Positions 21,029-21,988 are shown, counted from the first letter of the stretch. The stretch is DNA of 64,000 bases from Escherichia coli (GCF_050320075.1 NZ_CP190018.1), one strand, 5' to 3'. A program made the numbers and translations. The notes: a model not told the origin generated them from the sequence alone.

Positions 21029-21454
21029 ATGACGGCGCAAATATCAGCTTACGGGCGGCTGGTGGCTGACCCGCAGTTAAAGACCACCAGCAAGGGCACA
21101 CAAATGGCGATGGCGAGTATGGCGGTCCCCCTTCCATGCAATCAGGCAGATGACGGAACGGCGACGATGTGGTTATCCGTCCTGGCGTTTGGCAGACAGG
21201 CTGACGCACTGGCAAAACACCACAAAGGCGAACTGGTGAGCGTGGCCGGTAACATGCAGGTGAGCCGGTGGACGGGCCAGAACGGCGAAACGAGGCAGGG
21301 ATGGCAGGTTATCGCAGACAGCGTAATCAGTGCGCGAACGGCGCGACCGGGCGGCAAAAAAGGCCAGCAGGGGCAGGCTACTGATGCACTGAACAGGGCA
21401 AAGCAACAGACAGGCCAGCACGATGATCCGTACGGGGACGGGATACCGTTTTAA
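21029..21454 (+). CDS. single-stranded DNA-binding protein-like (OB fold), tentative
   Basis: 141 aa; N-terminal OB-fold-like region and Gly/Gln-rich acidic tail ending DDPYGDGIPF, reminiscent of the SSB C-terminal tip. Confidence 0.55.
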   Translation: MTAQISAYGRLVADPQLKTTSKGTQMAMASMAVPLPCNQADDGTATMWLSVLAFGRQADALAKHHKGELVSVAGNMQVSRWTGQNGETRQGWQVIADSVISARTARPGGKKGQQGQATDALNRAKQQTGQHDDPYGDGIPF

Positions 21455-21490
21455 TTCACAACAGCGAACAGAGTAATTACAGGGGAAGGC

Positions 21491-21988
21491 ATGACAAAGC
21501 TGACCATAAACAGAAAACCGAAGGGCATTTACGGCACGCCGCAGAAAACAGCACAGGCGGCGCAGCAGCAGAATAAAACCACATCGGCGCATAAAGTGAT
21601 GCCAGATAACCAGAACACACAGCAGAAGCTCACAGGAGCAACACCGCGGCGGCGTATGACCAAACAGCAGCGTAAAAACCGCAGACGCGTTAACCGTCTT
21701 ATTGAGCTATGGCCTGAATTATTCAGCCCGGAATCCCCTAAGCCGCTTAAGGTGGGGATATTTGACGACCTGATACAGGATATTGCCGCGAGAGGTATTT
21801 CACTCGGACAGGGAACACTACGCGCAACGCTGGCGCGTTATGTGCAGACTCCGCGCTATTACCGCGCCCTGGTAGCTGGTGGCGCGCGTTACGACCTGAA
21901 AGGCCAGCCGTGCGGCGAGGTAACACCACTACAACAGACGCACGCAGGAAAACTACTGGAGGAGATGAATGGAAATAGTAAGAAATGA
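21491..21988 (+). CDS. ProQ/FinO-family RNA-binding protein-like
   Basis: 165 aa; basic N-terminal region, LIELWPELF ... [10 protein letters not shown] ... [17 protein letters not shown] resembles the ProQ/FinO domain. Confidence 0.55.

Follow-up and report, generated by a model that had tools for sequence, protein, structure and literature searches.

The two neighbouring genes at positions 21029-21988 of a 64,000-nucleotide stretch of the Escherichia coli chromosome (NZ_CP190018.1, the whole stretch being referred to as the window) are best explained as functional genes of a phage-satellite island of the phage-inducible chromosomal island (PICI) type, in which they are common, swappable add-ons located just after the replication origin. 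One gene encodes a single-stranded DNA-binding protein (SSB) and the other a FinO-domain protein of the ProQ/FinO family. As functional satellite genes, they probably provide an SSB that coats the single-stranded DNA (ssDNA) of the island and a FinO-domain protein that tunes its own element via RNA. As it stands, the result amounts to two ordinary gene families, correctly annotated, in an element of a well-known type, and its interest comes mainly from the wide spread and the fixed post-origin position, which give a testable hypothesis.

The region consists of exactly two open reading frames (ORFs) on the + strand, ssb (21029-21454, 141 amino acids) and a proQ/finO-like gene (21491-21988, 165 amino acids; hereafter proQ-like), which are separated by a gap of 36 nucleotides. 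A Shine-Dalgarno-like sequence is located 5' of each start (GGAG for ssb at 21029 and GGGGAAGG for the proQ-like gene at 21491), and identical genes are named "single-stranded DNA-binding protein" (WP_000126713.1) and "ProQ/FINO family protein" (WP_021543045.1) in RefSeq. An initial annotation, made from the sequence, had assigned the two ORFs to the same families; both domains were checked with hidden Markov model profiles and structures, and neither assignment failed.

The SSB assignment is borne out by a match of residues 4-99 to the Pfam SSB profile (PF00436, E = 3.7e-16), a score of 61 bits against NCBIfam TIGR00621 (above the curated cut-off of 53.95), a match to the SSB family PHROG 44 (4e-39) and matches to 26 solved SSB chains at E ≤ 1e-3. 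The protein comprises an OB-fold (oligonucleotide/oligosaccharide-binding fold) SSB domain and an acidic C-terminal tip (DGIPF); the C-terminus reads ...HDDPYGDGIPF and D(G/N)IPF is kept in the relatives. In bacterial SSBs, the IPF tip is the recruitment site for partner proteins. The aromatic residues W40, W54, F60 and W88 of E. coli SSB (EcSSB) stack against ssDNA, and the island residues W48, F53 and W81 align with W54, F60 and W88 (via an EcSSB-like plasmid SSB), with a non-aromatic residue at the position of W40. The SSB is at least 93% identical between island backbones that carry different replicases. Most likely, the island SSB helps the element to replicate from the neighbouring origin, with its IPF tip recruiting host factors: it would serve as the satellite's own ssDNA coat during replication after induction, and the conserved tip would bring in the host SSB-interacting replication and repair proteins.

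The proQ-like ORF encodes a disordered basic N-terminal tail (residues 1-47) and a FinO domain (about residues 58-164). Residues 64-162 match the Pfam ProQ/FinO profile (PF04352, E = 1.6e-23), and the sequence matches in the PDB are the N-terminal domain of ProQ (2e-14), FinO (4e-11), Lpp1663, NMB1681 and RocC. In an AlphaFold model built from 18 family members, residues 1-47 are predicted to be disordered and residues 50-165 display a predicted local distance difference test (pLDDT) score of 76-94. The predicted helices (58-73, 90-100, 107-118, 121-129 and 146-164) and strands (132-134 and 140-143) correspond to the FinO fold of five helices and a beta-hairpin. A Foldseek comparison of this model with the PDB, in which the best 27 matches are all FinO-domain structures (target-normalised template modelling score up to 0.85, root-mean-square deviation about 2.1-2.4 Å), agrees with the profile and sequence matches in upholding the ProQ/FinO assignment; the leading matches are 1DVO (FinO, the top match), 7RGT, 7RGU, 3MW6 and 6S10, and the model can be superposed on FinO, RocC and NMB1681.

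The residues that are essential for RNA binding in characterised family members are kept. In E. coli ProQ, R58, Y70 and R80 are essential for the binding of every RNA tested (PMC10578477), and in RocC the residues R75, Y87 and R97 together with G52 make the N-cap and the pocket for the 3'-terminal nucleotide of the terminator hairpin (PMC9674577). According to the alignment, ProQ G37, R58, Y70 and R80 (RocC G52, R75, Y87 and R97) correspond to G89, R111, Y123 and R133 of the island protein, and all four are conserved. Within the 18-sequence family alignment Y123 and R133 are invariant, and G89 and R111 are present in 17 and 16 sequences, respectively. Furthermore, K35 and R69 of ProQ are retained as K87 and R122.

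Judged by its sequence, the protein belongs to the FinO-domain superfamily but to none of its named branches, because it scores below the NCBIfam cut-offs for ProQ proper (equivalog NF003434, 57.5 bits against 127) and FinO proper (NF010317, 55.7 bits against 136), lacks a C-terminal domain (the chain stops about five residues past the FinO domain) and is only 31% identical to FopA, over 74 amino acids of the FinO domain and with no N-terminal similarity, which places it outside the FopA branch. The family hallmarks are a strongly conserved 14-residue N-terminal motif, a Q/K/T-rich linker and a basic patch (RQRKNRRR) before the FinO domain. A search of 1.84 billion cluster representatives returned 1929 matching clusters at E ≤ 1e-3 and only five at E ≤ 1e-30; the island type therefore represents a compact clade inside a wider family. 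The proQ-like gene is under purifying selection, with a median ratio of non-synonymous to synonymous divergence (dN/dS) of 0.255 (49 pairs); the disordered N-terminal part alone gives 0.23 and the FinO domain 0.26. The first 57 codons (21491-21661) diverge less at synonymous sites (median dS 0.38) than the FinO domain (0.66), and a per-codon synonymous profile over all sequences displayed no sharp feature behind this difference, which may reflect a recombination breakpoint just as well as a constraint at the nucleotide level.

Both genes are part of a 19.1 kb island (12913-32076) within the E. coli chromosome that is bounded by 16-bp direct repeats, one copy of which is the 3' end of a tRNA-Gly(CCC) gene, in agreement with the initial annotation, which had placed them on an integrative element. 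The window matches strain YZLc1-3 with 100% identity. The integration site is the glyU gene (tRNA at 12857-12928) and the left repeat (attL, TTCCCTTCGCCCGCTC, 12913-12928, + strand) overlaps its 3' end; the second copy (attR, 32061-32076, + strand) was identified as a direct-repeat match, and the homology to other island-bearing E. coli genomes stops at position 32078. From left to right, the island contains a tyrosine integrase gene (13056-14309, +; PHROG 1 integrase, 7e-79, and RefSeq), the int-alpA RNA motif just 3' of it (Rfam RF02996, 14354-14421, +; 46.9 bits against a gathering score of 35.8, E = 8e-7), an AlpA-family regulator gene (15463-15660, +; Pfam Phage_AlpA, 2.8e-19), AntA and BRO-N antirepressor-like genes, a short leftward operon, an Icd-like gene, a DUF4222 gene (18393-18695, +), which in related islands is always located immediately 5' of the replicase gene, and the pri-rep gene encoding a DUF927 primase/helicase-type replicase (18692-20818, +; PHROG 1139 DNA primase, 6e-174, and RefSeq DUF927). 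The spacer of 210 nucleotides between the replicase gene and ssb contains both iteron sets of a putative replication origin (20842-20966), namely two copies of TGCGGGTTA, an AT-rich spacer and four inverted copies of TAACCCGCA that are spaced 11, 21 and 21 nucleotides apart. Related islands with other replicase types carry their own iterons at the same position (e.g., ACTGTCTAC, AAAGTGAGG, ACTGTTCAC and CTTATCCCA). The layout of two iteron sets is that of published E. coli PICI origins (PMC6092414).

The overall build agrees with the published PICI layout (PMC6092414; PMC11773190). The Gram-negative PICIs EcCICFT073, EcCIEDL933 and EcCIMP1 share with the island the integrase, AlpA, antirepressor and PerC genes, the integration into a specific tRNA/att site (here marked by the integrase and the att repeats) and a pri-rep gene followed by two iteron sets that flank an AT-rich core. 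The island differs from the PICI description, which specifies about 10-15 kb and no structural or lysis genes, in its size of 19.1 kb and in homologues of gp15-gp17 of phage epsilon15, a block that accounts for the larger size. According to the annotation, no capsid, portal, terminase, tail or lysis genes are seen in the island.

The arrangement of ssb and the proQ-like gene was compared in about 150 related islands, drawn from 78 IMG/VR loci retrieved by the ProQ-like protein, 80 retrieved by the SSB and additional contexts from public assemblies and RefSeq. The proQ-like gene is located within 4.5 kb 3' of the DUF4222-replicase gene pair in 71 out of 72 loci with enough upstream sequence, and three unrelated replicase types are found upstream (DUF927, D5_N/DUF5906 primase and RepA-like helicase). 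A perC gene follows immediately 3' of the proQ-like gene in 59 out of 84 loci, with a 4-nucleotide stop/start overlap in relatives. The ssb gene is present within 1 kb 5' of the proQ-like gene in only 38 out of 79 loci, and in the loci that lack it the proQ-like gene is located directly 3' of the iteron region. Conversely, the gene 3' of ssb in 70 non-duplicate islands retrieved by the SSB is a proQ-like gene (21 islands), the capsid module of capsid-forming PICIs (25), perC (10) or another gene (14); a capsid-forming island of the same build in O157:H7 carries a related ssb directly 5' of perC. Where a proQ-like gene lies beside the conserved SSB, it is typically 70-78% identical to the window copy. 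Islands with both genes, with ssb only and with the proQ-like gene only were each found with all three replicase types, and ssb and the proQ-like gene are therefore independently assorting optional cassettes of one slot, between the replication-origin module and the perC or packaging genes, and not an obligate pair.

The initial annotation had described the pairing of an SSB with a ProQ/FinO protein as more typical of the leading regions of conjugative plasmids. In favour of an origin from such a region, where the pair would serve the establishment of incoming single-stranded DNA, F and IncI plasmids do encode both an SSB and a FinO-family protein. The gene maps of these plasmids contradict the description. 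On the IncI plasmid pCol1B9, about 17 kb lie between fopA (at 5.7 kb) and ssb (at 23.2 kb), and on an F-type plasmid, ssb (45.3 kb, adjoining psiB) and finO (85.2 kb, past traX) are separated by 39 kb and located at opposite ends of the tra region; neither finO nor fopA is part of the leading region. The identities are low (31% to FopA and FinO, 26% to the plasmid SSB), and psiB, ardA, relaxase and oriT genes are missing from the annotation of the island. Homologues of the proQ-like gene at the DNA level were identified in 1077 out of 5426 complete E. coli genomes at 1538 places (up to nine per genome), all of them chromosomal, and with the ssb-proQ pair as the query 2400 genomes contained 3624 chromosomal places and two on plasmids. 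A tblastn search against 72,556 plasmids returned only FinO at about 31% identity and one record of 4.8 Mb that is evidently a chromosome. Because the pair is distant on plasmids, the identities amount to 26-31% and the homologues are chromosomal, a plasmid leading-region origin is not supported, and we regard it as scarcely credible. A phage origin was also considered and set aside, with relatives in only eight out of 50,697 phage records (the best in Sodalis phage phiSG1 at 45%) and uninformative contexts. The mosaic origin suggested by the initial annotation holds in that the element is mosaic, and fails as to the partner, the shuffling taking place among PICI-type satellite islands and not with plasmids. 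The exact ProQ-like protein is found on at least 1000 contigs. A scan of genome contigs yielded only two loci, in E. albertii and Serratia oryzae, and the taxonomic breadth is therefore poorly sampled.

By its position, the proQ-like gene counts as part of the island's replication/regulation core and not of the distal cargo, and by analogy control at the RNA level by its product is plausible. The FinO-domain protein would bind RNAs that end in a hairpin and a 3' tail (intrinsic terminators) through the intact pocket formed by G89, R111, Y123 and R133, and would thereby act on a small set of satellite transcripts, by stabilising or matching them. The result would be a tuning of the island's own replication or late expression, as FopA, PcnR and FinO do for their plasmids; each of the three works through a cis-antisense RNA, and FopA and PcnR repress the replication of their own plasmids in this way (PMC9977716; PMC7491321). 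Such a specific post-transcriptional role in satellite replication or late expression is put forward tentatively, as a possibility that falls somewhat short of an even chance, because of the homology (hairpin binding), the position in the replication/regulation core and the analogy to FopA, PcnR and FinO.

Several observations weigh against a functional reading of this kind. The functional claims are drawn from homology and gene position only, and the neighbourhood counts given above come from redundant loci selected by similarity, so that they describe existing arrangements and not unbiased frequencies. Many sister islands do not carry a proQ-like gene, which is therefore not essential for the satellite life cycle. 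Within the FinO domain, ProQ K54 and R62, which have a moderate effect on binding, are replaced by Q107 and A115. Searches of the island and its relatives found no partner RNA of the FinO-domain protein; Rfam matches in the window island at E ≤ 1 are limited to tRNA-Gly and the int-alpA motif, and the island copy of the latter lacks the U-rich tail of the consensus. An RNA element embedded within the proQ-like gene was not found either, the profile of synonymous identity being flat, and matches to antisense terminator-like structures in the gene are limited to weak 5-bp stems.

Two candidate ligands were rejected in the course of these searches, which counts on the same side, and one sequence comparison was set aside. 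The isrK small RNA (sRNA) followed by a C4-type antisense RNA is located immediately 5' of the icd-like gene in some sister islands (L003:6139-6366, L009:6236-6424 and L024:3957-4142), a layout that resembles the immunity regions of P1 and P4; according to Rfam, neither RNA is present in the window island, and as partners they were dismissed since they show no association with the proQ-like gene (7/59 vs. 5/49). A non-coding block of 100 nucleotides at the 3' end of the leftward two-gene operon (17165-17262, minus strand) is present in 79 out of 99 unique related islands. It is absent from Rfam, is conserved whatever gene lies 5' of it and comprises an invariant 5' box (ACTGAT..ATTGCCCACCAGCC, a Chi site read on the opposite strand) and, after a variable middle part, a conserved intrinsic terminator, the hairpin of which is the sole supported consensus structure (7 bp with one compensatory pair, GGCGACC/GGTCGCC vs. 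GGCCACC/GGTGGCC). As an sRNA ligand derived from a 3' untranslated region the block was rejected, being equally frequent in islands with and without the proQ-like gene. The k-mers enriched 5' of the replicase gene in islands with the proQ-like gene, relative to those without it, match coding-sequence lineage markers (DUF4222 N-termini), and this comparison is therefore confounded by the backbone type.

As the main rival explanation, the FinO-domain protein might act outward, by binding helper-phage or host RNAs (e.g., in competition with or in mimicry of host ProQ), with the effect of disturbing the helper or reprogramming the host when the satellite is induced. The sets of ligands of FinO-domain proteins can be broad, FopA also binding chromosomal RNAs (PMC7491321), and PICI genes 3' of the origin often serve phage interference (PMC6092414); as an optional gene that is shuffled between islands, the proQ-like gene resembles an accessory or interference cassette, and no partner RNA encoded by the island co-varies with it. 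However, PADLOC defence models had no match, and the tight position between the origin and perC (71/72 and 59/84 loci) and the 4-nucleotide overlap with perC in relatives look like a core regulatory module, leaving outward action unlikely. The same position, in which almost every locus has the proQ-like gene first or second after the origin, could also be read as a direct role in replication together with the SSB (acting on primer RNA, R-loops or RNA-DNA hybrids at the iteron origin) instead of post-transcriptional regulation, and a review of the family describes a recurrent link with DNA metabolism (PMC9977716). This is improbable given that the presence of the proQ-like gene is independent of the SSB and of the replicase type, that many islands with the same replicase lack it and that the FinO-domain proteins characterised so far all target hairpin RNAs with a free 3' end (PMC9674577).

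A further reading is that both genes are decaying passengers with no current function. The adjoining perC gene is frameshifted in this island and an erosion of chromosomally integrated FinO homologues has been reviewed (PMC9977716), but both ORFs are intact, the dN/dS ratio of about 0.26 and the invariant key residues indicate constraint, and the conservation of the SSB across backbones (≥93%) and of the exact ProQ-like protein (≥1000 contigs) makes decay very improbable. A more ambitious form of the preferred explanation, that of a satellite protein tuning its own element, is that the island proteins constitute a distinct satellite-specific subfamily of FinO-domain RNA chaperones that, as dedicated post-transcriptional regulators, control either the life cycle of the PICI (its copy number or its switch to late/PerC-dependent expression) or the exploitation of helper phages. 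Such a dedicated subfamily is rather doubtful at present; if real, it would be the first case in E. coli of an RNA chaperone with a place in phage-satellite biology.

Downstream of the two genes, the island continues with an ORF of 138 amino acids, the frameshifted perC gene, a terminator and three very large genes. The 138-amino-acid ORF (21969-22385, +) overlaps the end of the proQ-like gene by 20 nucleotides, is specific to this island lineage, contains no Pfam domain that could be found and sits inserted between the proQ-like gene and perC. The PerC-family regulator gene (22394-22619, +) is frameshifted in this island lineage, and in most relatives it is intact, lies directly 3' of the proQ-like gene and overlaps the stop codon of that gene by 4 nucleotides. 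A hairpin followed by a U-run that resembles an intrinsic terminator (22624-22645, +) ends the rep-ssb-proQ-perC gene string. The three large genes (23054-30401, +; 843, 686 and 925 amino acids) are colinear with gp15-gp16-gp17 of Salmonella phage epsilon15, which encode internal virion/ejection proteins, and represent cargo of the island lineage; the gp15 homologue (843 amino acids) is 79% identical and contains a transglycosylase-like segment. It is unusual for a PICI-like satellite to carry its own copies of helper-type ejection proteins, and the block points to a helper of the epsilon15/phiV10 type or to a recombinant with such a prophage.

Chi sites (GCTGGTGG) are concentrated in the island, with 15 of the 17 sites in the 64-kb window located inside the 19-kb element, 11 of those on the + strand (13320-31934), compared with an expectation of 1.37 for the whole window from shuffles. 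Two sites lie within ssb (21058, +, and 21084, -) and one within the proQ-like gene (21875, +). This enrichment could protect linear or concatemeric replication products from RecBCD. In place of the isrK and C4 RNAs of some sister islands, three TGTGCGCACA palindromes (17759-17838) are located in the divergent promoter region of the window island, which suggests a protein-operator switch. A second mobile element (about 33800-45800) is located 3' of the island. Besides many small ORFs, an ORF of 613 amino acids and an IS1, it has a small gene of the serine-recombinase-like kind (33789-34346, -) and genes for a major capsid protein (40939-41967) and a second tyrosine integrase (44280-45455, -); the element may be a prophage remnant or a further satellite that forms capsids. 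The adjoining AT-rich block (about 46000-55000, GC content 31-37%), in which the first annotated genes encode a LuxR-type regulator and a lytic transglycosylase, presumably resembles the E. coli type III secretion system 2 (ETT2) island sited near glyU.

Among bacterial RNA chaperones, FinO-domain proteins make up one of three major classes and, to our knowledge, every characterised copy on a mobile element (FinO, FopA and PcnR) governs transfer or replication of the element that encodes it. The present analysis adds a separate, uncharacterised branch at a fixed post-origin position in PICI-type satellites, and about 20% of complete E. coli genomes contain DNA homologues. Should the branch use RNA to regulate the replication of satellites or their exploitation of helpers, a post-transcriptional layer would be added to satellite-helper biology, and many clinical and commensal E. 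coli strains would carry extra FinO-domain paralogues that could cross-talk with host ProQ. In the literature searched, no discussion of an ssb or ProQ/FinO gene in E. coli PICIs was found; the 2023 review of the family describes an "eclectic" branch of chromosomal, plasmid and phage homologues and does not single out satellites (PMC9977716).

The island SSB shares the OB-fold and the C-terminal ...IPF tip with EcSSB and with the SSBs of plasmid leading regions (F Ssf and IncI Ssb), and aromatic residues of its sequence align with three of the four ssDNA-stacking positions. It differs from the plasmid SSB in sequence (26% identity), in its shorter length (141 amino acids) with a short Gly/Gln linker and in its gene neighbourhood, the island ssb adjoining a satellite iteron origin and the plasmid genes adjoining psiB/ardA. 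For the FinO-domain protein, close parallels include FopA (YafB, IncI pCol1B9) and PcnR (IncI2), likewise small FinO-domain proteins that have a basic, unstructured N-terminal extension, lack a C-terminal domain and are encoded by a mobile element close to its replication functions. The N-terminal region is unrelated to that of FopA, the gene is carried by an integrative phage satellite that has an iteron origin, and no antisense RNA of the Inc/RepR type was identified for the island protein. FinO of F-like plasmids shares the fold (1DVO, the top structural match), 31-35% identity within the domain and a disordered basic N-terminal extension; in contrast, the island contains no tra operon and no FinP/traJ, and its gene is placed between the origin and perC instead of at the distal tra end. 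Finally, chromosomal E. coli ProQ shares the FinO domain with the R58/Y70/R80 triad, K35, G37 and R69, whereas the island protein is built without the linker and the C-terminal Tudor-like domain of ProQ and is encoded by an accessory gene of a mobile island.

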